From NCBI GenBank assembly GCA_046045965.1, contig JBJOKS010000018.1, forward strand, positions 1-64,000: a DNA stretch of 64,000 bases, read 5' to 3'. Position numbers and translations under genes: made by a program. The notes beneath the pieces are model-generated. The model worked only from the letters and a program-made list of their open reading frames with translations. It ran no database searches and was not told the origin of the DNA. Positions 12,443-25,434 of this stretch are shown piece after piece (position 1 is the first letter of the stretch; the number at the start of each line of letters is the position of its first letter). This stretch comes from Cyanobacteriota bacterium (GTDB lineage: Bacteria > Cyanobacteriota > Cyanobacteriia > Cyanobacteriales > Nostocaceae).

Positions 12443-15400
12443 TCACCTGTAAGCCATTCCCTGATTTAAAAGTTGTTGAATTTTATCTGCTAGAAATTTA
12501 AGTTTAACTGGTTTAGTTAAATAATCATTAGCTCCTGCTGCAATACATTTTTCTTGATCCCCAGCCATAGCTAATGCTGTCAAAGCAATAATTGGCGTAT
12601 TTATAAACTGGTGATCGGCACGAATGAGACGCATTGCTTGTAATCCATCCATACCAGGCATTTGAATATCCATGAGAATTAAATTAGGATGTTGTTCTTT
12701 AGTGAGAGTAACAGCTTCTTGACCATTTTTTGCCATAATTATGTTATATCCCCTAGCACCTAGATAGTTGGAGATAGTGGCAATATTGGCTTCATTGTCT
12801 TCTGCCAGCAGGATGAGATATGGGGAAGTTGATTCAATTGGTGCGGCAACTGGGGTAGTTGTGGGAGCAATAATCACTGCATTTGTTGAAGAATTATCTG
12901 CTGTTAGAAGTTTATTTAATATTTGTCGGATTTGGTTGCGGCTAATGGGTTTAACGAAGTAATCAGTTGCTCCCAAAGATAATGCTTGCGATCGCTCATC
13001 AACTACCGAAATCACAATTACAGGAATATTTTTCGTTTGGGGATGTGCTTTTAGCTGCTCTAGAACTTCCCACCCAGATAAGTTGGGTAACTGGATATCT
13101 AAAAGTATCAGCAACGGATTAAGAGATATGGCTTGATCAATTGCTCCGTCACCCCTCCTATAAATTGTAGTTTCCATATTCAGTTCATGCAAATATCGGG
13201 CCACCTGTTCTGCTGCAACTATGGAATCTTCGATAATCAGCACCCGTAAATTTTCAGATTTATGATGCGGTAATACTTGATAAGTGGTAGGTAATAGAGT
13301 TTTTTTCTCATCTTCCGATTTCCCGATACAGGGTATGCGAACTGTAAAACAGCTACCTTCACCTACCTCACTAGTTACTATTATTTGACCACCATGCAAC
13401 TCTACCAGTCGCTGTACTAAAGCTAAACCCAATCCTGTACCATTGTGCTGACGGTTCAAACTACTGTCGATCTGCACAAAAGGTTGAAACAGTTTATCTA
13501 ACTCTTCCTTCGCAACTCCAATTCCGGTGTCAATTACTGAAAAGCAAATCCATTGGAGGCAGGAGGAAAGGGAGGATTTTTCGCCAATTCCCCCATCTTC
13601 GACACTTCCCATTTGCTGTACCACTAACTTAACGCTGCCACCGTTGGGAGTGAATTTTACGGCGTTGTTGAGCAAATTAATCAGCATCTGACGAATACGA
13701 CGTTCATCTACAACTAAATCTGGTAGATTGGGAGGGATTTCTACAGATAGCTGAATATTTTTTTTCAGTGCCTGTTGTTTAACAAATGTCAAACTGGAAT
13801 CACAAAGATAGCTACAAGCAACAGGTGCGAGTTGTAGTTCTAGTTTGCCGGCTTCAACTTTGGAGAGATCAAGAATATCATTAATCAATTCTAGTAAGTG
13901 TTTACCGCTCCGTTCAATAGTTTTGATGGCTTGTTTTTGGCGATCGCTAATTTGATCAAAAACTCCCTCTAACAACCCTTCTGACATTCCCAAAATCGCA
14001 TTCAGAGGAGTCCGCAGTTCGTGACTCATATTCGCTAAAAATTCATCTTTAAGGCGAGTAGCGCGGGCAAGTTCGGCATTAGTTTGGCGTAATTCTGCTT
14101 CCATTTGCTTGCGTTCTGTCATTTCTAAAGCCGCACCAATAATTTGCGTGGGTTGATTTTCAGCATCCCGGCTAAATACGGTATCATGACTGAGAAACCA
14201 GTGCCAGTTACCTTGGATATCGCGCATTCTATATTCAATTTCCCTGATATCTTCATCCTTGGCTGTGGCAAAATGAGCATGATATTCAACTATTTTGGGC
14301 AGATCATCAGGATGGGAGATTTTCAGCATAAATTCTGACCCCATACTGTGTATTTCTGTGGGAGAATAGCCTAGTAATCGCGTAATTTCTCGGTTAATGT
14401 AAATATTGCGTTTTTCTTGCAAATCGTAAATGTAAAGGATATCTGGACTGGCTTCGGTGATCCTTTCAATTAAATACTGACTTTCTTTTAAAGCCATTTC
14501 GGCTTTTTTCCGATCAGTGATATCAAGAGCGGCACAGGTTACACCTTCTATTTCACCATTGCGATCGCGTAGTGGATCAATTGTCAACACATAACAAATA
14601 AAATTATCTTCTGTACCAATGACAATTTCTTCTCTTATGCCTTGACCTGTTTCTATCACCTGACGTTTCCAAGTTTCTAATTTTTCGGCATCTTTAGCTA
14701 GGAAAAGATCAGTATCCAACTTACCAACTACATCTTCAACTTTATAGCCCAAAGCAGGGTTATAAATCCAGGTGTAACGCAGATTAAGGTCTTGGTTAAA
14801 TACGACAATAGGCGAATTATTTAAAGCAATGCGAAATCTTTCTTCACTGTAGCGCAAGGCTTCTTCCGCACTACGTCTGCTGGTAATATCTTCATAAGTT
14901 CCCAAAATCCCAATAATATTACCATCAGCGTCCCGTAATGGAACTTTATTGGTTTCTATCCACATTAAAGAACCATCATGTTTATGGAAAGTTTCTTGGA
15001 TGTGCAGTTGTGGTTGACCAGTTGTCATGACAAGGTGGTCGCATTCTAGGTAAAAATCAACTTCTTCACGAGTTGCAGACATATCATAAGGATCTTGTCC
15101 GATAACTTCTTCTGGGGTTTGACCAGCATCTTCAGCAAACTTGCGGTTACAACCTCTTACCACTGATTGAAGATCTTTCCAGAAAACACGCTGCGGGATT
15201 GTATCCAATACCAATTGCAGCATAGCCTGTGATTCTTGTAAAGCAGTAGTTCTTTGCTCAACTCTAGCTTCTAGTTCTTCATTAAGTTGCTGTAATTCTG
15301 CTTCTGCTTCCTTGCGTTCGGTAATATCTTCAGCAAAACCAGCAATACGGTAAATTATACCCTGTTCATTGGCGATGGGAAAAGCGCGATCGCGAATCCA

Positions 15401-18322
15401 GCGCACTGTCCCATCAGGTTGAATAATCCTGTATTCTTGATCATATTCACCTGGTGTAATTTGATTTGGCAGAGATTTGATTACCTGTTCTCGATCATCT
15501 TCGTGAATAGCAGTAACCCAGGTTATCGGTTGCTGGTAAAGGTTCTCCAGACTCCGACCCCAAATTTTTTCATACTGGGGACTGACAAAAATTATCTCCG
15601 ACTTTTCTATATTCGTCATCCAAATTACTTCCGGCAAATTCTCGGCAATTTGTCGAAACCGTTCTTCACTATTTCTCAGGGCAATTTCTGCCTGTTCCCG
15701 TTCTTTTAATGCAGCTTGCCGCTCACTAATATCCACAAATGTGACTACTACTTGTTTTAAACTGCCATCGTTATTAAATTCAGGAAAAGCATTCACCAAT
15801 AACCAAATTTGGGTTTTACTTTGAGGTCTATTCACCCCAACTACATAGTTAGTCAGGGGTTTAAGTGTAGAGATTACCTTATTAATTGGATATTCTGAAG
15901 ATGGCATTAATGTTTCATCTTCCCTCAAAAAATGCCAAGCTGGATCAACGGCTGTTTTTCCCTGCATTTGCGAGATAGTTAATTCTAAAAGTTCGCAAGC
16001 TTTAGCATTACAGGTGATAATAGAAGTATCGACTGCATGAACAACCAAACCCAAGGGTAAATTTTCTACCAACAGTCGATATTTAGCTTCACTTTGACGC
16101 AATAATTCTTCAGTTTGTTTTAACTCAGTAATGTCTGAAAGTGACATCAAAAAAGCATTTTGTCCTTCCCAAGCAATAGCCGCAGCTTGCATATTCACCG
16201 TCCGTCGCTGGCCAGATGCTTGTAAAACTTCAATTTCTTCTATTCGATGAGTATCATAATCACAAGGGAGGGCAAAAGGCCAGCCGCAGAGCATTTCAAT
16301 ATCCCTACCAAACATCCTTGCAGCTGCCGGGTTGACGAAGAGTATATTACCTTGCCGATCAACGGTGACAAGACCACTAGCACTGGTTTCAACTATGGTT
16401 CGCAAGCGTTGTTCACTATCTTGTAATGCTTTTTCTACTTGTTTGCGTTCAGTGATGTTGCGACAGGAATACAGCAGTGTACCGCTACCAATTTTGACCT
16501 GTTTTACATTCACCAAGACTGTATATTTTCTACCATGTTTATCAACAATATCACGCTCAATGTTGGCAATCTCACCAGACAAAGCTAACTGTTGCGGGTC
16601 AAATAGATCCTGACCAAGTAGAAATTTAATGTTTCCCATCTGAGTGACATCTGCTACTGAATAACCAAAGAGAATATCGACATTAGGACAGATAAAAGTA
16701 AATTTACCCTGGTCATCAGTAATAAATAAGGCATCAGAAATGGTACTCAGGGTAGTGCGGTACAGTTCTTCAGACTGGGATAAAGCAGCTTCGGCACGTT
16801 GTCGTTCTTGAAGTTCTAGCTGGATGCGATGATAGAGATCCGCTTGTTGGATAGCAATGGCTACATGAATAGACAGCTGTTGTAGTAGTTCGGTTTCTTC
16901 TGGTTGCCAAATTCGTGGAGCGTCATTTTGACAGGCCAGCATTAATCCCCAAAGTTGATCACCAACAACAATCGGTACTAATATTTTAGCTCTGATTTGC
17001 AGACTTTCTAATAGTTGCCGATGACAGGGACTCATATCATCTGTAGTAATATCATCAACAACTTGAATCCTGCCATGAATATATTGTTCGATCCAATCAG
17101 GTGTAAAACAAGGGTCGCTGACTAGTTGCCCTAGTAAGGATAACCATCCTGCTTTTACGTCTTCAGCAATGACGATACCGTTGCCATCAGTATAACATTG
17201 ATAGATGAGAACGCGATCACAATTCAAAAATTGTCGCACTTCCAGAGCGATCGCATTCAGGGTTTCTTGCAAGTCTAATGATATCCTAATCCGGCTAGTA
17301 ATCCCACTCAATAGCCGTTCCCGTTGTGCCTGTGCTTGCAACTCTGCGGTACGTTTTTTTACTTCTCCTTCTAGTTCTGCGTTTCTAATCTGCAATAACT
17401 CCAGCTTTTCAACCTCTAACCGCGATACCTCCTGTTTGAGATTGTCTACTAAAGTATAAATATCCAAAGGATTCAAGGCTTGTAATAAGGTAGTTTGTGT
17501 AACAATTCCTAGTAATTCTCCTTGTTCACCAGTAATCACAACCCGATTGATACGCCTGGATTGCATGAGCATTAATACTGACCAGAGAGTTTCTTTTGGT
17601 GACAAAGAAAAAACCGGACTACTCATGACTGTTTGCGCCTGAATGCTCTGCAAATCCAGCCCTAAGGCCTGAAACTGCACAATATCGCGTTCAGTCATAA
17701 TCCCTACTGGTATTAGCAGAGAATTTTGCTCTTCGGCAATGATCACCGAACTGACGTTATCCCGCGCCATTAACTTGGTGATATCTAGCACAGAAGTTTG
17801 GGGAGTAGCTTTGACGAGGCGAAAGTTCATAACTTCCGATACAAGACGCAAACGCAACAGGTCTACAGGTTTCAGCAATTGACGCAAGCTTTCGTGAGTC
17901 AGCAGTCCTACTATTTGTCCATGCTCGTCTAGAATTGGTAAATGACGAATCCGATGGCGTTGAAAAAGATTGAGCGCCACAAAAATATCCGTAAATTCGG
18001 ACTGCTTCATGGTGATTACACAGTGAGTCATCACATCCGAGATCGCCACTCCGGCAATTTTTCGCCCCTCCGCACTCAATCTCACCACATCTCTCTCTGT
18101 AAAAATTCCTATTAATTGAGTTCCCTCCATCACAAGTACACAACTAGCTCGGCAATCAGTTAACAGATAACTGGTATCCTCTTCCGGTAATGTGCAACTT
18201 CCTCTGGCGTTACTCATGAGGGCGATCGCATCAGTTGCTAATGTATTCGCAGTCACAACTAAGGGAGTATCAGCAACTGCCTGTTCTAGATTGTTTACTT
18301 CGATCAGGGAAGAGAACAACAT
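12443..18322 (-). CDS. Multi-sensor hybrid kinase: 4 CBS, DXCF cyanobacteriochrome GAF, about 7 PAS, HisKA, HATPase, 2 REC
   Basis: GIFTERDVV and GIMTERDIV CBS repeats; SDPCF and SPCH in the GAF; repeated DITERK PAS ends; MSHELRTPLN; two receiver domains. Confidence 0.92.
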   Translation of the reverse strand: MLFSSLIEVNNLEQAVADTPLVVTANTLATDAIALMSNARGSCTLPEEDTSYLLTDCRASCVLVMEGTQLIGIFTERDVVRLSAEGRKIAGVAISDVMTHCVITMKQSEFTDIFVALNLFQRHRIRHLPILDEHGQIVGLLTHESLRQLLKPVDLLRLRLVSEVMNFRLVKATPQTSVLDITKLMARDNVSSVIIAEEQNSLLIPVGIMTERDIVQFQALGLDLQSIQAQTVMSSPVFSLSPKETLWSVLMLMQSRRINRVVITGEQGELLGIVTQTTLLQALNPLDIYTLVDNLKQEVSRLEVEKLELLQIRNAELEGEVKKRTAELQAQAQRERLLSGITSRIRISLDLQETLNAIALEVRQFLNCDRVLIYQCYTDGNGIVIAEDVKAGWLSLLGQLVSDPCFTPDWIEQYIHGRIQVVDDITTDDMSPCHRQLLESLQIRAKILVPIVVGDQLWGLMLACQNDAPRIWQPEETELLQQLSIHVAIAIQQADLYHRIQLELQERQRAEAALSQSEELYRTTLSTISDALFITDDQGKFTFICPNVDILFGYSVADVTQMGNIKFLLGQDLFDPQQLALSGEIANIERDIVDKHGRKYTVLVNVKQVKIGSGTLLYSCRNITERKQVEKALQDSEQRLRTIVETSASGLVTVDRQGNILFVNPAAARMFGRDIEMLCGWPFALPCDYDTHRIEEIEVLQASGQRRTVNMQAAAIAWEGQNAFLMSLSDITELKQTEELLRQSEAKYRLLVENLPLGLVVHAVDTSIITCNAKACELLELTISQMQGKTAVDPAWHFLREDETLMPSSEYPINKVISTLKPLTNYVVGVNRPQSKTQIWLLVNAFPEFNNDGSLKQVVVTFVDISERQAALKEREQAEIALRNSEERFRQIAENLPEVIWMTNIEKSEIIFVSPQYEKIWGRSLENLYQQPITWVTAIHEDDREQVIKSLPNQITPGEYDQEYRIIQPDGTVRWIRDRAFPIANEQGIIYRIAGFAEDITERKEAEAELQQLNEELEARVEQRTTALQESQAMLQLVLDTIPQRVFWKDLQSVVRGCNRKFAEDAGQTPEEVIGQDPYDMSATREEVDFYLECDHLVMTTGQPQLHIQETFHKHDGSLMWIETNKVPLRDADGNIIGILGTYEDITSRRSAEEALRYSEERFRIALNNSPIVVFNQDLNLRYTWIYNPALGYKVEDVVGKLDTDLFLAKDAEKLETWKRQVIETGQGIREEIVIGTEDNFICYVLTIDPLRDRNGEIEGVTCAALDITDRKKAEMALKESQYLIERITEASPDILYIYDLQEKRNIYINREITRLLGYSPTEIHSMGSEFMLKISHPDDLPKIVEYHAHFATAKDEDIREIEYRMRDIQGNWHWFLSHDTVFSRDAENQPTQIIGAALEMTERKQMEAELRQTNAELARATRLKDEFLANMSHELRTPLNAILGMSEGLLEGVFDQISDRQKQAIKTIERSGKHLLELINDILDLSKVEAGKLELQLAPVACSYLCDSSLTFVKQQALKKNIQLSVEIPPNLPDLVVDERRIRQMLINLLNNAVKFTPNGGSVKLVVQQMGSVEDGGIGEKSSLSSCLQWICFSVIDTGIGVAKEELDKLFQPFVQIDSSLNRQHNGTGLGLALVQRLVELHGGQIIVTSEVGEGSCFTVRIPCIGKSEDEKKTLLPTTYQVLPHHKSENLRVLIIEDSIVAAEQVARYLHELNMETTIYRRGDGAIDQAISLNPLLILLDIQLPNLSGWEVLEQLKAHPQTKNIPVIVISVVDERSQALSLGATDYFVKPISRNQIRQILNKLLTADNSSTNAVIIAPTTTPVAAPIESTSPYLILLAEDNEANIATISNYLGARGYNIIMAKNGQEAVTLTKEQHPNLILMDIQMPGMDGLQAMRLIRADHQFINTPIIALTALAMAGDQEKCIAAGANDYLTKPVKLKFLADKIQQLLNQGMAYR

Positions 18323-19283: not shown

Positions 19284-19718
19284 ATGAACCAAGAATACCA
19301 AGAATATTTTATGCGTCTAGCAATAGAAGAAGCAAAAAAAGGAGATGCGCCTTATGGGACTGTGATAGTTAAAGATCATCAAGTAGTTGCAGCCGCTTAT
19401 AATACTGTTAGACGAGATAGTGATCCATCAGCCCATGCAGAAATTAATGTCATTCGCAGTTTAACCGCGCAACTAAAAAAACCCTCTTTAGAAGGCTATT
19501 GTATATATACCACTGGCGAACCTTGTCCTATGTGTGCTACAGCTTGTGTATGGGCTGGGATATCGGAAATTATCTATGGTGCTTCAATAGCAGATTTAAT
19601 TGCCATTCATCAAGGACAAATTAGTATATCTTGTGAAGAAGTTATAGCTAAATCATTTAGAGAAATTAAGGTAACGAAAGGAATTTTAAGGAAAGATTGT
19701 CTAGAATTATTTGCATAA
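19284..19718 (+). CDS. Nucleoside/guanine deaminase family protein
   Basis: HAE...EPCPMC zinc motif. Start taken at ATG 19284 (MNQEY); the ORF track starts at 19260. Confidence 0.85.
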   Translation: MNQEYQEYFMRLAIEEAKKGDAPYGTVIVKDHQVVAAAYNTVRRDSDPSAHAEINVIRSLTAQLKKPSLEGYCIYTTGEPCPMCATACVWAGISEIIYGASIADLIAIHQGQISISCEEVIAKSFREIKVTKGILRKDCLELFA

Positions 19719-19835
19719 AAAAGCCCCAGTAATATACCAGGGCGTTTGAATTTATGGCTAAAGGTAACAAGTGTTAAGAAAAAAAAGTACCAGAAATTTT
19801 ATTAAATTAATCTGATTAACTTTCCAGACTTGCGC

Positions 19836-20390
19836 TTACATAGAGGATGCACCAGTGGCAATAAGTCGTTTGAATAAGGCTTCTGACCAACCAGTTTCTC
19901 TAAGTACCGCAGTTGAGGAAACTTCTACATAAGCTTGCTCAATAAAAGCTAAATCAATCATACAAATTCTACCCAATGCTTCTTGCAATACCTCTGGTTT
20001 GCCATCAATTTTCAGCTTTTTACCAACTTCATGCACGACAACTGACATAGCTGGAACTACGTGCTGAGGGCCTATTCCAATTTTGACATGGACAAGTCCA
20101 ATATGCCAACGACAATTAGCGTAGGCTGAACCCCAATCATCTATGCCAGTAAACATTTGATGAAACCATTCAACAAATGTTTCATGTAGACGGTGAATTC
20201 GTCCCTCAGTTTTATTTAAAATGGCATTCATTTCTTCATCACGTCCTAAATAAGCATAGAAGTGATCAGCCATAATGGGTGCGCTTTCTAGCCCCCAATC
20301 TGCGTGGACGTTAAGAATAGCTTTATCTTCAGAAGTTAAACCAACTCTTCTTTCCATCGTTTGCATAAAAACGCTAGGTTCTACAGTCAT
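19836..20390 (-). CDS. Stand-alone protoglobin / sensor-globin domain protein
   Basis: VGLTSEDKAIL start, FYAYL (B10 Tyr), IGLVHVKIGI proximal His motif. Confidence 0.85.
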   Translation of the reverse strand: MTVEPSVFMQTMERRVGLTSEDKAILNVHADWGLESAPIMADHFYAYLGRDEEMNAILNKTEGRIHRLHETFVEWFHQMFTGIDDWGSAYANCRWHIGLVHVKIGIGPQHVVPAMSVVVHEVGKKLKIDGKPEVLQEALGRICMIDLAFIEQAYVEVSSTAVLRETGWSEALFKRLIATGASSM

Positions 20391-20461
20391 AACTAGTCCT
20401 TTTTTATTGTTTATTGTTTACTATGTATCTTCCCTGTGAACACCAAAATTACTTTTTAAAA

Positions 20462-21379
20462 TTAAGCAGTTTTACTGCGGAGAAAACCAACTAAATTTTT
20501 CAGGAATGATTGACTAACAGCAGGTTTTTCTGTTGGCTTTTCTGTGGGTTTAGTTGCAGGTACGGTTTCCGGCACTGGTTCTGGAAAAGTAATTGTGGGA
20601 GCAGGAGTAGAAAGAGGATCTTCTAAAGTGAATGTGGGTGTAGCAGCAACCATGAAATACTCTTCTGCTAAACCAACTACAATTAGTCGGAAAGCAATTT
20701 GTTGTACATTTGCTATCGGTAGATTGATTTGATTAGCAATGTACTGTAAAGAAACCTGTCCATTGACAAATTCCCACACTTGCCATTCTTGAGCATTTAG
20801 CTGTAGTTTGGGCTGTTTGACCATCAAACCCGATAAACCCGAAGTAGGGTCTGGAAGTTTTTCTTCTAAAGCTCTCCAATCTCGTAATGCACGCAGTCCA
20901 ATTAATATGACCTCAGTTGCAGACATACTCAAGCCAGTCATTTCCCCTAAAGGTAATGTTGGTGTTGGCTCAAATCTAAATAGAGCATCCTTGACTTGGA
21001 ATAAGCCACATACTGGACGCAAAACTTGGCTATTAAATAGTAGTTTTAGTTGTTCTGGTTGTAGTAGTCCTTGAGATTTGAGACACAAACCTAGTGGTGA
21101 GTTGACAAAACAAGCGGAAATTTGAGTTACTCTAGAAATTACTCGCTCGCTTATCCATCCCCTTTGAGCAATCATTAATGTTAAAGCTTGTTGATCTAAA
21201 CGATCAGCAGCAGCAACTACACGACCTTGGTGTAACCAGATATAATAGACTTGCTTTTTCTTTTTATCATTTTCCTCAGCTAAAAATTCAATGTAAAGTA
21301 TTCCGGTTTTTTTACCTTGATCTAAAAACTGAAGGAGTTCGGGTAAGGAAAAATCTGCAAAGTTACCAGTAATAGTCAT
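20462..21379 (-). CDS. DUF4388/PATAN domain protein
   Basis: GNFADFSLPELLQFLDQGKKTGIL, YIWLHQGRVVAA, C-terminal wHTH-like segment. Confidence 0.85.
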   Translation of the reverse strand: MTITGNFADFSLPELLQFLDQGKKTGILYIEFLAEENDKKKKQVYYIWLHQGRVVAAADRLDQQALTLMIAQRGWISERVISRVTQISACFVNSPLGLCLKSQGLLQPEQLKLLFNSQVLRPVCGLFQVKDALFRFEPTPTLPLGEMTGLSMSATEVILIGLRALRDWRALEEKLPDPTSGLSGLMVKQPKLQLNAQEWQVWEFVNGQVSLQYIANQINLPIANVQQIAFRLIVVGLAEEYFMVAATPTFTLEDPLSTPAPTITFPEPVPETVPATKPTEKPTEKPAVSQSFLKNLVGFLRSKTA

Positions 21380-21469
21380 AATCCACCTCCCGCCTGGGGG
21401 AATTAAAATAGTTAACTAATCAGAATAATTTTCTACAAAAATGATTTGTCTGCTGACTGCTGCGGTAAA

Positions 21470-22009
21470 TTAAACTGCACAACTTTCCATTAAATGCTGC
21501 ACTAGGACAATTACTGCTTCAGCTACAGAATCTCCTTGATTAGGGTTGACTCTAACCATAGGAGGTCGTTGAGCTTCATCAACATATCCAAGAGCAAGAT
21601 ACACATCTTCTTCAGACCAAGCTCCAGCACAATCTGTATGTGTGAGACCAAGAATCATGGGAATGTCAGCGCGTTCTTGCATAAAGTTGAGAATTTTACG
21701 TACATAACGAAATTCTCTAGCTCGATGTGCTGCTATCAGTACGATATAAGCATGAGCTTTGCGAATTAAAATATCCCACATGAAATCAAAACGAGACTGA
21801 CCAGGTGTACCATACAGGTGTAAAGCCATGTCGGGTCCAAATTGCAGCCGACCAAAGTCAAATGCTACTGTAGTTCTTTGTTTGAGTAATGCTGTTTCAT
21901 CTGTGGCACGGGTATCTGTATCTACAACTTCAATTTCACTGACGGAGCGGATAAAAGTGGACTTTCCCGCGCCTACAGATCCCGTCACCATCAAGCGCAT
22001 AATCTCCAT
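21470..22009 (-). CDS. MglA-like small GTPase
   Basis: G1 GSVGAGKST, RTTVAFDFG, G3 YGTPGQSRF, G4 variant THTD. Confidence 0.9.
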   Translation of the reverse strand: MEIMRLMVTGSVGAGKSTFIRSVSEIEVVDTDTRATDETALLKQRTTVAFDFGRLQFGPDMALHLYGTPGQSRFDFMWDILIRKAHAYIVLIAAHRAREFRYVRKILNFMQERADIPMILGLTHTDCAGAWSEEDVYLALGYVDEAQRPPMVRVNPNQGDSVAEAVIVLVQHLMESCAV

Positions 22010-22176
22010 GTTTATTTACTCCATAAATAAACAATTAATAAGTCATTATTCACTAGTTTGACTAAGCTCCTCAATGTTGTTTACAGCTTTTTGGTATTAG
22101 GTCAAAAGTTCCCTCACTTAATTTGATATTTATTTAGGAGGGAACTTAGAATTGAGTGACTTTTGTTATAGATCAT

Positions 22177-22548
22177 TTAGACCAAAACTAGCTTGAGTTC
22201 TGCAAGAACACGTTTAATTTCTAGCATTAATACCCCCTGTTTAGCTGTTTCACTAGCCAAAACCAGGAATACTGCATCTTCACCACAACCTGTTAAGATA
22301 CCAAAGCCTTTCTTGCCTTCTACAAAGATGCGATCAACTGTGCCTCTAGCTAACTCAATACCTATTCTTTCACCTAAAGACAGCATAGATGCTGACATTG
22401 CTGATACCCGTTCTTCGTCCATTGCACCGGGTAAACTTGTGGCTAAAGGTAGACCATCTGGGGTAACAAGTGCTGCTCCTTGAACATCTGTTGTAGCAGC
22501 TACAAAGTTTTGTAAAATCAGACCCAATTTTTCTGTGTTAATTGCCAT
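22177..22548 (-). CDS. Roadblock/LC7 (MglB-like) protein
   Basis: VQGAALVTPDGLPLA...RVSAMSASMLSLGERI. Confidence 0.92.
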   Translation of the reverse strand: MAINTEKLGLILQNFVAATTDVQGAALVTPDGLPLATSLPGAMDEERVSAMSASMLSLGERIGIELARGTVDRIFVEGKKGFGILTGCGEDAVFLVLASETAKQGVLMLEIKRVLAELKLVLV

Positions 22549-22647
22549 AATAATTTATTCTCCAGGTTGCTTCAAATTTGGTCGTGAGTAGGAAATTTAT
22601 TCCTGATTACATAAAGTCTTGATCTGTGATTTAAAGTTACAGATTTT

Positions 22648-23118
22648 TTAGTCTCGGTTTGTAAATTCAAATACGTCGTGATTACCGCCTCTGAGGACTG
22701 ATTCAGTATGCACTCCCCGTAAACGTTTGCTAAGTATTTCTTCTAATGCTCCCCAAACCGCGCCCAATGTAAAGGTACACTTGCGTTCTGAACCCTGTGG
22801 TTCACCTGCTGAACAAACTGTTTCAGATGTGTATACTTTAATAGTATCACCCTCTTTAACAATTTTATCAATTATGCAAAGTCTGGTTCCCTCTTTACCT
22901 ACGGCTAGGGCTAATTTGGCTTGTGCTACATCCAAGGAATCTACAGATCCTGATAAACCCAAACTTGCAGCTATTTGTTTGCCCCGTGCGCGTCCAGCTG
23001 TGGTTAGGGCAATGGCTGTGGCTTTTTCTCCTAAAGCTTCTTCCATGCCGATAACTACTGCTTTGAAACAAACTATGCTGTTGAAATCTCCTAGTTGTGG
23101 TCTTAGTAATTCTGGCAT
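22648..23118 (-). CDS. V4R-domain small-ligand-binding protein
   Basis: GMEEALGEKA...AGRARG, ETVC...KCTFTLGAVWGALE, RGGNHDVFEF. Confidence 0.7.
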   Translation of the reverse strand: MPELLRPQLGDFNSIVCFKAVVIGMEEALGEKATAIALTTAGRARGKQIAASLGLSGSVDSLDVAQAKLALAVGKEGTRLCIIDKIVKEGDTIKVYTSETVCSAGEPQGSERKCTFTLGAVWGALEEILSKRLRGVHTESVLRGGNHDVFEFTNRD

Positions 23119-23575
23119 ATAATGTACTCCATTCTAATTCAACTAAACTGTATTTTTACGTAGAGTAGAGAAAATCTATTTTGGCTGTTTTTATCTCTCC
23201 AATGTAGATATTCTTCACAATTTCAACGTGTAAATTTATGCTTTGTTTGTCGAGCTATGCCTCATTTCCTTTTGAGTTCATTATCTGGGATTCAAAACTA
23301 AGATCACACCGTAATACTACTGAAATTAGGTTTCTTTATCGTTAACATAAGTTACGTTTATGTGAGTCAATGCTCATTTATGGGTTAGTGCTTAGAAGAC
23401 TATATATAGCTGTCATTGTGTTCCGAGAAGATGCAAATTTATCTGTATGAAGTTGGTATGAATGTTTTTAAAATCATCAAAAAAATACTTAAGCATAATT
23501 TTAACCAAAAAATAATTATCAGCAATAATTCTTAGTAAATTCAATCATTCAGTCACAAAATAGATCAGAGCATTT

Positions 23576-24229
23576 TTAGTACAAAGAGGAAAAATAAGTA
23601 TTAGCAAGAATAGCAGCTTGGGTGCGATCGCGCAAATTAAGTCTACTTAAAATGTTAGTAACGTGATTTTTAACTGTTCCCTCAGAAATGTAGAGTTCTT
23701 GGGCAATTTCTCGGTTACTAGCACCTGTAGCAATTAATCGTAAAACCTCTTTCTCTCTAGGTGTTAATTCGGTTAAACTCGGTGGTACAGATGGTGTGAG
23801 GTTGGGTGCTGGGGATGGAAACTGAGTCAGCAGTTTTTTGACTATTCCCGGACCTAGTTGAGAATATCCTTTATCAACAGCGCGAATAGCAACAGCTAAC
23901 TCTTCTGAGGGTGTATCTTTGAGTAAATAACCCATTGCACCATTTTGTAATGCTGCTTTGACATATTCATCATCATCAAAAGTTGTTAATACCAAAACTT
24001 TCGTATTTGGAAACTGTTTGTGAATTTCTCTTGTTGCTGCAACTCCATCCATAATAGGCATTCTAATATCCATTAAAACTACATTGGGTTGCAATTTTTC
24101 CACTAAATTAATAGCAATTTCACCGTTTTCGGCTTCTCCAACTATTTCTAAATCTGGTTCTAATTCTAATAATGCTTTTAAACCTTGACGAATTAAACCT
24201 TGATCATCTACAAGTAAAACTTTAATCAT
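23576..24229 (-). CDS. NarL/LuxR-family response regulator
   Basis: VLMDIRMPIMDG, LTPREKEVLRLIATGASNREIA HTH. Confidence 0.95.
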   Translation of the reverse strand: MIKVLLVDDQGLIRQGLKALLELEPDLEIVGEAENGEIAINLVEKLQPNVVLMDIRMPIMDGVAATREIHKQFPNTKVLVLTTFDDDEYVKAALQNGAMGYLLKDTPSEELAVAIRAVDKGYSQLGPGIVKKLLTQFPSPAPNLTPSVPPSLTELTPREKEVLRLIATGASNREIAQELYISEGTVKNHVTNILSRLNLRDRTQAAILANTYFSSLY

Positions 24230-24234
24230 GATTT

Positions 24235-25434
24235 TTACCTAGTTGAAGGAATAGTAACTATAATTTTACAACCAGCACCAGGAGCAGAGTTAATTGTAAA
24301 TTCTCCACCTAATGCTAAAGTGCGATCGCGCATACTTTGTAAACCGAAACCAGTTGTATTTTGTGTGATATCAAAACCTTTACCATTATCTTGAACTCTT
24401 AATTTTATAGCCTTGTTTGTTGTAGTTAGTTCTAGTTGTACAGATGATGCTTTTGCATATTTAGAAATATTGGTAAATGACTCTTGAATAATGCGATAAA
24501 TGGAAATGCTCATTTCTGGGGGAAGTGGATATTCTAGAGAAATTAAACAAGTTGGTAAAATCCCATTGGCACGTTGAAAGTCTGCTGCTAAAATAGTAAT
24601 AGCCTGTGCTAAAGATTGTGATTGTAAAGGGTGCGATCGCATAGTAGAAACTGATTGACGCACATCCTGTAAAGCTTTTGAACCAAGTTCCTTAGCAGTT
24701 GCTAAAAAAGTCATTGCTCTAGGTATATCAGACTTAGAAAGTTTTAATGCTGTTTCTAATTGTAGATTTAAAGCTGTGAGAGAATGTCCCAAAGAATCAT
24801 GAATTTCCCTAGCGATGCGATTACGTTCTTGTAAAGTTGCTTGATTTTCAATTTGCAGAGCATATTGGCGCAGTTTTTCATTAGCAAGAACTAGTTTATC
24901 CCGACTTTGACGCTCGGATAAAACTGCATTCATCAAAAGTAAAACGAATACTAAACTTAACCCAAATAAAACCGCTAAACTAAAACTAAAAAATCTGAAT
25001 TTTTCTTGTACTATTAGTGGTAATCTATGAGGTGGAAACCGACTTTTCAGTGTCATTAAAAAAAAGATAAATGATAAAAAAGTAACCGTTAACCGCCCTG
25101 GTAATTGAAAAATCAAGCAACTGCGAGTTACCAAAATTAAGTATAGAAAAGGAAAAAGTCTAGCTGTTCTACCACCGAAAAAACCAGTAATTAAAATTAA
25201 AAAAACTTCCGTGGCTGTATATATAATTTTGCCAACATGATTACTGGTAGGTAATCTTAAACCCATCAAACCAAAAACAGCCAAACTACAGATAGTTAAC
25301 TCTGGAAATCTGGCGGCAAATTTTGGTGATGGTGAGGGCATAATTACTACTAATACAGACAACCCCAGTAATACCCATTCTAAATAAAGCAGAAACCGAA
25401 ATGGATGATTATTAATTTGGATAGGACGAGACAT
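24235..25434 (-). CDS. Membrane sensor histidine kinase (HisKA_3 type)
   Basis: ERNRIAREIHDSLGH, QESFTNISKYA, DNGKGF, GFGLQSM; multiple TM segments. Confidence 0.93.
   Translation of the reverse strand: MSRPIQINNHPFRFLLYLEWVLLGLSVLVVIMPSPSPKFAARFPELTICSLAVFGLMGLRLPTSNHVGKIIYTATEVFLILITGFFGGRTARLFPFLYLILVTRSCLIFQLPGRLTVTFLSFIFFLMTLKSRFPPHRLPLIVQEKFRFFSFSLAVLFGLSLVFVLLLMNAVLSERQSRDKLVLANEKLRQYALQIENQATLQERNRIAREIHDSLGHSLTALNLQLETALKLSKSDIPRAMTFLATAKELGSKALQDVRQSVSTMRSHPLQSQSLAQAITILAADFQRANGILPTCLISLEYPLPPEMSISIYRIIQESFTNISKYAKASSVQLELTTTNKAIKLRVQDNGKGFDITQNTTGFGLQSMRDRTLALGGEFTINSAPGAGCKIIVTIPSTR

Follow-up and report, generated by a model that had tools for sequence, protein, structure and literature searches.

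A conserved cyanobacterial Roadblock-GTPase-PATAN cassette with variably present globin and V4R-fold genes, and a predicted contact between the globin tail and Roadblock

The stretch of DNA analyzed here (the window) comprises 64,000 nucleotides of contig JBJOKS010000018.1 from a Cyanobacteriota bacterium of the Nostocaceae (assembly GCA_046045965.1). Five open reading frames (ORFs) at positions 19836-23118, all on the minus strand, encode a V4R/Bet3-fold protein (A), a Roadblock/LC7 protein (B), a small GTPase of the MglA family (C), a stand-alone PATAN protein (D), and a stand-alone sensor globin (E). We propose that these genes form one conserved signaling cassette in which the Roadblock protein and the GTPGQ-type GTPase are the switch and the globin and the V4R-fold protein are likely exchangeable inputs that gate it, a reading to which we give an even chance. 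A first-pass annotation, made from the letters of the window, had described the genes as a co-oriented V4R-MglB-MglA-PATAN-globin operon with no kinase or enzymatic output domain. Their positions and shared orientation were confirmed, and Pfam revealed no kinase or enzymatic domain among the five proteins. The gaps between the genes are 99 bp (A-B), 167 bp (B-C), 90 bp (C-D), and 71 bp (D-E).

22648-23118, minus strand: gene A, V4R/Bet3-fold small protein, candidate ligand sensor, 156 amino acids (aa)
22177-22548, minus strand: gene B, Roadblock/LC7 (MglB-like), 123 aa
21470-22009, minus strand: gene C, MglA-family small GTPase, GTPGQ type, 179 aa
20462-21379, minus strand: gene D, stand-alone PATAN/DUF4388 with winged helix, 305 aa
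19836-20390, minus strand: gene E, stand-alone S-family (protoglobin-type) sensor globin, 184 aa

The association of these genes extends well beyond the window. Among 151 genomes sampled evenly across the phylum, the GTPase was detected in 18, the globin in 16, and protein A in 14; within the window's own family, the GTPase was present in 8 of 17 genomes and was not found in the other 9. Strong globin matches occurred in 14 of the 17 genomes with a strong GTPase match, spread over seven families, and in none of the 134 without one, a comparison in which related genomes do not count as independent. This distribution supports a link between the globin and the Roadblock/GTPase pair, in line with the first-pass reading. 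In the same sample, the 20 loci surrounding homologues of the GTPase contained Roadblock in every case, PATAN in 18, globin in 14, and a V4R-like A gene in 11.

A scan of species genomes returned at least 607 relatives of the GTPase, and the counts below refer to the best 80 loci. Their labels were cyanobacterial, save for one Sericytochromatia metagenome-assembled genome and two entries labeled only "bacterium." Module genes were all on the GTPase strand in all 80 loci, a same-strand clustering far beyond chance. We read the cassette as a constant Roadblock-GTPase-PATAN core to which accessory, exchangeable sensor genes are added.

PATAN: 80/80 loci
Roadblock: 75/80 loci (5' truncation of the contig accounts for the other 5)
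V4R-like A: 40/80 loci
Globin: 35/80 loci
A and globin together: 17/80 loci
Hemerythrin: 5/80 loci
Carot_N (helical carotenoid) protein: 8/80 loci
Any sensor: 66/80 loci

The 14 sensor-free loci included 9 that were truncated by contig ends and 5 that were intact. Gene order was shuffled, as listed next with H for hemerythrin, O for the helical carotenoid protein, and loci cut by contig ends counted in parentheses.

ABCD: 13 loci (+2 cut)
EABCD: 10 loci
EBCD: 5 loci (+3 cut)
EBCDH: 5 loci
OBDC(D): 8 loci
BCDE: 3 loci (+2 cut)
BCDAE: 3 loci
ABCDE: 1 locus (+1 cut); the window's own order, which is rare

When the sensor complement was mapped on a GTPase tree of 81 rows, 19 changes were needed, 7 to 10 per group being forced by well-supported branches. 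Given these changes and the shuffled order, the association of sensors with the core has been kept through many rearrangements. The nearest relatives of the window on this tree (Anabaena and Trichormus records) have BCDE without A. The module was present in Pseudanabaena, Leptolyngbya, Chamaesiphon, Microcystaceae, a Thermosynechococcus-type genome, and many non-heterocystous lineages.

Several arrangements recur within this variety. Of the 40 loci with gene A, 35 had it next to Roadblock. Pairs of A and Roadblock were also seen without an adjoining GTPase gene (L030, L032, and L033, with a PATAN gene upstream in L030), an arrangement that points to the V4R-fold protein and Roadblock as a unit in themselves. 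Orphan copies of A occur away from the module, as they do for the globin. The hemerythrin gene, whose product would be another O2-type sensor in this slot, lay after PATAN in L017, L018, and 5 of the 80 loci. The helical carotenoid gene (Carot_N, 2e-61 in L069) lay upstream of Roadblock in a Roadblock-PATAN-GTPase(-PATAN) arrangement in loci L069, L072, L077, L079, L087, L089, L090, and L091, and in such OBDC-type loci no more than 2 bp separate the PATAN gene from the GTPase gene. The eight carotenoid loci form one clade of the GTPase tree and account for one change, so this arrangement may be plain synteny of one lineage and is a lead only. Tandem sensor-Roadblock-GTPase units with an NB-ARC and TPR (STAND-type) protein at the usual place of PATAN were observed in two further loci (L020:9321-11645 and L021:3337-5427).

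Metatranscriptome contigs spanned the D-E, C-D, and B-C gaps (X1 records 3, 4, and 6) and the A-B gap (X3 record 20 and X4 record 23). Contigs over all four gaps are compatible with one transcription unit. The term "operon" used on the first pass thus stands as a conserved same-strand module whose four gaps are bridged by contigs of RNA libraries; a single transcript is not proved.

The globin E is a Protoglobin (PF11563, 65.5 bits against a cut-off of 25). It matched Tlr1989 (PDB 8H17) at an E value of 2.7e-85, with 72% identity over the full length including the C-terminal tail, and had more remote relatives in the globin domains of AfGcHK and of a Geobacter globin-coupled sensor. H101 and Y45 were invariant in 20 globins, and both align to the corresponding residues of the AfGcHK globin, in agreement with the proximal histidine noted on the first pass. 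By the residue roles of the globin-coupled-sensor literature, H101 is the proximal His F8 and Y45 the distal Tyr B10. E would be a heme protein that binds a gas ligand. With 184 aa, E consists of a globin domain only and is not a fused globin-coupled sensor. Tlr1989 of Thermosynechococcus elongatus BP-1 was reportedly treated by Mathur and coworkers in 2023 as a single sensor hemoglobin domain, as an isolated globin as far as the title shows.

The globin of locus L017, which belongs to a Thermosynechococcus-type genome of 2.6 Mb in a single contig, was identical to Tlr1989 at 184 of 184 positions, and the gene order there was globin-Roadblock-GTPase-PATAN-hemerythrin. Thus, the crystallized globin is itself a member of the cassette. 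A literature search with the name "Tlr1989" returned no paper, and the names tlr1988 and tlr1990-1993 returned only a hemerythrin survey, in which tlr1993 is listed as an O2-binding single-domain hemerythrin (PMC4919030).

A second globin gene was found in the window's own genome (G000:C21:112525-113076, locus L022). Its product is 69% identical to E and has the same conserved C-terminal tail; the gene is located at the end of a contig, with no Roadblock or GTPase gene nearby, and similar orphans were present in relatives (L023-L028).

Structure prediction of complexes, proposed on the first pass as a check, placed the globin on a Roadblock dimer in the model. Two Roadblock copies, one globin, and heme were modeled together from alignments of our own, which were shallow (14-15 rows). 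The interface score (ipSAE) was 0.61, 0.61, and 0.60 in three runs and 0.00 in all three controls; contact agreement between the runs was at least 94%, and the predicted local distance difference test (pLDDT) value of the partners was at least 89. Among solved complexes, 116 of 157 reached the mark applied to such scores, as did 2 of 215 mismatched pairs, a calibration that is only rough here given our own alignments and the riding ligand. The invariant C-terminal tail of the globin (E165-S183) is predicted to dock on the Roadblock dimer through residues 165-169, 171-172, 175-176, 179, and 183, facing Roadblock residues 30-33 and 44-61 of both protomers, that is, the conserved P30-D31-G32-L33 loop and the helix 44-61. 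Invariant contact columns were G167, L172, R175, and L176 in the globin and D31, G32, L33, D44, R47, A50, M51, A53, S57, L58, and R61 in Roadblock. The contacts with the lowest predicted error fell on invariant or nearly invariant columns in both proteins.

The Roadblock protein B (Robl_LC7, PF03259; 59.4 bits against a cut-off of 23, residues 12-98) had a mean column identity of 81% over 23 sequences, in all of which Asp31-Gly32 was invariant. GTPase C, which is single copy in its genome, matched ATP_bind_1 best in Pfam (2.8e-13), followed by Roc and Ras; like protein A, it had no match in the PDB by phmmer. Its G1 motif, GSVGAGKS at residues 10-17, fits the P-loop GxxxxGK[ST], and G10, G15, and K16 were invariant in 22 sequences. 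The G2 position is T46-T47, with Thr where Group 1 MglA has an intrinsic Arg finger. G3 is Y66-G67-T68-P69-G70-Q71, invariant among the 22 homologues except for T68, which was nearly so. G4 is THTD at 123-126 in place of [NT]KxD; the homologues have [TS]HxD, with the guanine-specifying D126 invariant in 22. Together with the Pfam matches, these motifs confirm the first-pass description of a Roadblock protein, a small GTPase with THTD in G4, a receiver-less PATAN protein, and a stand-alone globin.

According to the main text of PMC4316618 (Wuichet and Sogaard-Andersen 2015), MglA Groups 2-5 are defined by GTPGQ and by Thr in place of the Arg finger, and Group 1 by TVPGQ and an intrinsic Arg finger; the cyanobacterial members are Group 5, and the MglB proteins coupled to Groups 2-5 carry a conserved Asp-Gly, with the Asp predicted to lie within 5 Å of the GTPase. 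C has the sequence features of Groups 2-5 (P-loop, GTPGQ, Thr, and a coupled Asp-Gly Roadblock), and it is a putative GTP-binding and GTP-hydrolyzing protein. The earlier "MglA/MglB" label is accordingly apt for an MglA-family GTPase with a coupled Roadblock and does not hold in the strict Group 1 sense, which was ruled out for C by Thr46 for Arg and GTPGQ for TVPGQ. By analogy with MglB, B may act on the neighboring GTPase in the role of GTPase-activating protein (GAP) or of guanine nucleotide exchange factor (GEF).

Protein D is a DUF4388/PATAN protein (PF14332, 93.7 bits against a cut-off of 25, residues 4-169) for which Pfam gave no Response_reg match, making it a stand-alone form of PATAN. 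Its model (pLDDT 84) comprises a folded PATAN portion at about residues 1-170, a winged helix at about 170-244, a disordered Pro/Thr linker at 247-286, and a C-terminal amphipathic helix at 290-304, whose motif VSQSFLxxLVGFLxxK was conserved in 26 homologues. The amphipathic tail looks like a membrane-targeting helix by its resemblance to MinD-type tails. The whole model had no Foldseek match at an E value of ≤0.001, the PATAN part being barely covered by the wide search.

Protein A had been called a V4R protein, and this label proved valid at the level of family and fold only. The window protein itself had no Pfam or NCBIfam match even at an E value of 10, and neither Pfam V4R (PF02830) nor TRAPP was matched. 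Its family is narrow (115 representatives at an E value of ≤0.001 among 1.84 billion proteins), and its homologues are annotated publicly as "hydrocarbon-binding protein." Pfam V4R was matched by 5 of 31 aligned family members (best, 1.3e-11), the family profile matched the V4R protein MJ1460 at 0.004, and the language-model neighbors of A were V4R clusters and one Thorarchaeota TRAPP cluster. The AlphaFold model (pLDDT 89; predicted template modeling score, 0.85) resembled the sensor domains of MopR, PoxR, and DmpR as well as Bet3/TRAPPC3, with TM-scores (TMq) of 0.63-0.72. The best match was MopR (7vqf; E value, 7.7e-6; TMq, 0.72), MJ1460 also matched, and Thorarchaeota TRAPPC3 reached a TMq of 0.70; sequence identity to the fold matches was 11-17%. 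Because of the V4R-matching family members, the MJ1460 profile match, the language-model neighbors, and the matches of the predicted model, we assign A as a divergent member of the V4R/Bet3 fold. A C81...E99-x2-C102...C114 pattern is present in it, in which C81 was nearly invariant and E99, C102, and C114 were only mostly conserved in the family alignment. The pattern presumably resembles the Cys/Glu zinc site of MopR.

A mechanism can be proposed from these features. The ligand or redox state of the heme would alter the engagement of Roadblock by the globin tail and in turn the GAP or GEF action of Roadblock on the GTPase. The docking site includes Asp31, the predicted GTPase contact; therefore, the globin may be a competitor of the GTPase or may use the same face. 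In response to some small ligand, hydrophobic or other, the V4R-fold protein might do likewise. Once bound to GTP, the GTPase would engage the PATAN/winged-helix protein D, and D could pass the signal on to membrane machinery, with the motor of type IV pili as the likeliest target, as do the PATAN domains of PixE and PixG. A pilus output is suggested because PixE, through a PATAN domain that by itself can reverse phototaxis, binds PilB1 and PilC (bioRxiv 10.1101/2021.06.11.447907), because in L058, a Rivularia record, the cassette is followed by PATAN-receiver (PATAN-REC), CheY, and CheW genes, and because the window's own genome has one MshEN/PilB-type match.

A bolder version of the proposal is a cyanobacterial plug-in family, in which one Roadblock-GTPase-PATAN core takes as stand-alone inputs at least three, perhaps four, unrelated cofactor proteins (heme globin, V4R/Bet3-fold protein, hemerythrin, and helical carotenoid protein) that dock noncovalently on the Roadblock dimer, the globin via its tail at the face where the Asp in contact with the GTPase lies. 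In this version, eukaryotes' TRAPP-type Bet3/longin GEF platform would have a bacterial counterpart in the V4R(Bet3)-Roadblock-GTPase triad. We hold this version only tentatively and think it more apt to be wrong than right.

A number of points weigh against the cassette as a signaling device gated by its sensors. The score of the complex is a model confidence, obtained from shallow alignments and with a ligand outside the calibration. The globin tail was equally conserved in the orphan paralogues L022-L028, including the second copy in the window's own genome, and is therefore not specific to globins within the module. The longer relatives of Roadblock were 12 proteins, all with Roadblock only, and no longer relatives of the globin were found, each a weak negative with regard to fusions. 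A contig over two genes is no proof of a single transcript, as RNA libraries can hold DNA. The sensors are dispensable, given the five intact loci without any; a relative of the same genus (L002) has lost A from the module, and in another record gene A is degraded (L003:4980-5246, G026), with a match to residues 65-153 that is interrupted by two TGA and three TAA codons. The isolated globin is the only cassette protein with biochemical or genetic data. Finally, the winged helix of D matched many DNA-binding domains of the MarR/AsnC/Fur type (Z of 5.6-6.6).

This last point leads to the main alternative, in which the input logic is the same and the output is transcriptional: the winged helix of D would bind DNA, and the state of the GTPase would control expression. 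Residues 170-244 of D are predicted to fold as a winged helix and this domain was conserved in the 26 homologues, as the alternative would have it. However, the best structural matches of the winged helix were subunits of the GATOR1/SEA complex (Z of 10.4 and 10.0), which are protein-protein modules of a Rag-GTPase regulator, and the conserved amphipathic helix that ends D after a disordered linker fits anchoring to a membrane or a partner better than DNA binding. Han et al. also argue against DNA binding by PatA-type regulators in bioRxiv 10.1101/2021.06.11.447907. We consider a transcriptional output unlikely.

The globin and the other cofactor proteins could instead be protective or enzymatic, serving in detoxification of NO and O2 or in O2 buffering and being merely coregulated with the GTPase cassette. 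Single-domain globins and hemerythrins can scavenge O2 and NO, and orphan paralogues of E are found outside the module. Against this stand a linkage that has outlived many rearrangements, gains, and losses, the confinement of strong globin homologues to GTPase-bearing genomes, and the nature of the globin, which is of the sensor (S) family and is predicted to bind Roadblock through its conserved tail. Elsewhere, a globin is also known in fusion with Roadblock (PMC4476040). A purely protective function therefore appears improbable.

Hormogonium taxis or heterocyst placement had been offered on the first pass as the possible role of the module. The main text of PMC4316618 cites control of the heterocyst pattern by PatA, the founding PATAN protein, and the window genome groups with heterocystous genera. 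However, such a specific role cannot be general, because the module occurs in a Thermosynechococcus-type genome of 2.6 Mb, nor does it fit the presence of the module in Pseudanabaena, Leptolyngbya, Chamaesiphon, and Microcystaceae or the failure to find it in 9 of the 17 sampled genomes of the window's own family. As a general explanation this idea was abandoned, and even for the Nostocales it has little probability. Least probable is that the Roadblock/GTPase pair serves the accessory proteins as a nucleotide-driven maturation or cofactor-delivery factor for proteins with heme, di-iron, zinc, or carotenoid. Cofactor binding is common to the four accessory families, and the best Pfam match of the GTPase is ATP_bind_1, but there is no chemical kinship among the cofactors, a PATAN signaling domain is the third partner that stays constant, and the GTPase bears the MglA-family GTPGQ signature and a coupled Roadblock rather than a metallochaperone GTPase signature.

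The proposed signaling cassette has relatives among known systems. As in MglA/MglB of Myxococcus xanthus and Thermus thermophilus, the gene for a Ras-superfamily GTPase stands beside that for a Roadblock/LC7 protein, which in those systems acts on the GTPase, and in Myxococcus the pair is linked to type IV pili. In contrast to that pair, the window GTPase has GTPGQ for TVPGQ, Thr for the Arg finger, and THTD in G4; the window operon adds sensor proteins and PATAN, and no RomR or RomX genes are in the cluster. The B-C-D core belongs to the Group 5 MglA-MglB-PATAN neighborhoods, with PATAN genes nearby, of the main text of PMC4316618, which cites Makarova et al. 2006 for them; the statement on the first pass that similar neighborhoods are in print without functional work is in keeping with this source. 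PATAN is described there as lying near Group 1 and Group 5 MglA genes, with a link called "occasional," whereas here PATAN was present in 80 of 80 loci and sensors in 66 of 80. The words "V4R" and "globin" do not occur in that main text; the supplementary tables, which were outside this check, may list neighbors.

HGbRL of Methylacidiphilum infernorum (PMC4476040) is a heme globin fused to Roadblock/LC7, whereas the window has separate proteins. This source (Teh et al. 2015) proposes that ligand-driven movement of the globin is relayed to Roadblock, and it places an MglB/MglA-like pair elsewhere in the genome. The globin of HGbRL is of the HGbI type, not of the protoglobin/S type; HGbRL occurs in a single genus and lacks a PATAN partner. 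It is an independent precedent for globin-Roadblock coupling. Tlr1989 (PDB 8H17), the orthologue of E, has its own gene in an E-B-C-D-hemerythrin module.

In the PATAN-REC proteins PixE and PixG of Synechocystis, PATAN is the output module, is membrane localized, and binds the N-terminal domains of PilB1 and PilC, according to the bioRxiv source given above. D differs from them in having no receiver, in a presumed controller that is a GTPase instead of a phosphorelay, and in its extra winged helix and C-terminal amphipathic helix. Protein A shares its fold with the V4R sensors MopR, PoxR, and DmpR and with Bet3/TRAPPC3 and is without an AAA+ or DNA-binding output. In TRAPP, a Bet3-fold subunit and longin subunits make up a Rab GEF; in the window, a Bet3-fold gene stands beside Roadblock and small GTPase genes. 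The actinobacterial conservon (CvnA-D/Mfp) likewise combines a GTPGQ-type GTPase and Roadblock in a multigene signaling operon with a dedicated sensor, but its sensor is the membrane histidine kinase CvnA and its fourth protein is the DUF742 protein CvnC, neither of which Pfam detected among the five genes of the window.

What was already known is the B-C-D core, as a cataloged and unstudied Group 5 MglA-MglB-PATAN neighborhood, and the solved orthologue of the globin. Added here are the variant with both sensors, the table of sensor slots over 80 loci, the repeated gains and losses, and the predicted tail-Roadblock interface, which passed its controls. A literature search, outside of which most subscription journals fell, returned no paper that links stand-alone sensors to this GTPase switch.

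Knowledge of small Ras-like GTPases in bacteria comes chiefly from Myxococcus, in which a chemosensory phosphorelay supplies the inputs. Docking of the globin on Roadblock would be an undescribed route for oxygen-type signals into a bacterial G-protein switch. It bears on the control of the much wider group of GTPGQ-type GTPases, as a heme sensor and a V4R/Bet3-fold protein would be wired to the switch with no kinase, on how single-domain "sensor" globins without an output domain signal, and on whether the eukaryotic trafficking-GEF combination of Bet3 fold, Roadblock, and GTPase has a bacterial counterpart. The predicted interface, with globin residues 165-183 on one side and D31-G32 and helix 44-61 of Roadblock on the other, is concrete and can be mutated. 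Direct tests of the idea are feasible: the orthologous globin has been crystallized, and Thermosynechococcus and Nostoc are genetically tractable, with pilus-motility assays established.

Three further elements were found in and around the cluster.

23119-23261, minus strand: 5' leader upstream of gene A, covered by contigs of RNA libraries
22102-22147, minus strand: hairpin followed by UUUU in the B-C spacer, 12 pairs in the centroid structure
19717-19743, minus strand: intrinsic-terminator-like hairpin and U run, 9 pairs, 5 of them G-C

In the leader, one contig (X2 record 13) extends to 23261 and an X1 contig has a loose end at 23245; the contigs define no start. X1 cover was scant or nil at 23307-23700 and 19500-19781 and present over the cluster; absent cover carries no evidential weight, and this observation was used neither to place transcript ends nor to rule out DNA carry-over. 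The GATAAT-like hexamer at about 23280-23285, upstream of A, is a candidate promoter element only, and a promoter scan gave 18 sites compared to 14.6 ± 3.9 in shuffled sequence, i.e., no excess. The hairpin in the B-C spacer, which as a whole folds with a z of -2.28, is possibly a partial terminator or attenuator of transcription into the GTPase gene. The terminator-like hairpin, a strong one, lies 92 nucleotides past the stop codon of the globin gene.

Two genes at 23576-25434 (minus strand), which is 457 bp upstream of the cluster and on its strand, encode a 399-aa histidine kinase and a 217-aa response regulator of the LuxR type. This position is kept in Nostocaceae relatives (L002 and L004-L008) and not in other families; the pair is probably lineage synteny and a separate unit from the cluster. 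Downstream by 1.5 kb, past a convergent deaminase-like gene and a channel-like gene, an ORF of 1959 aa (12443-18322, minus strand) has a translation that, read by eye, resembles a multisensor hybrid histidine kinase with two C-terminal receiver domains.

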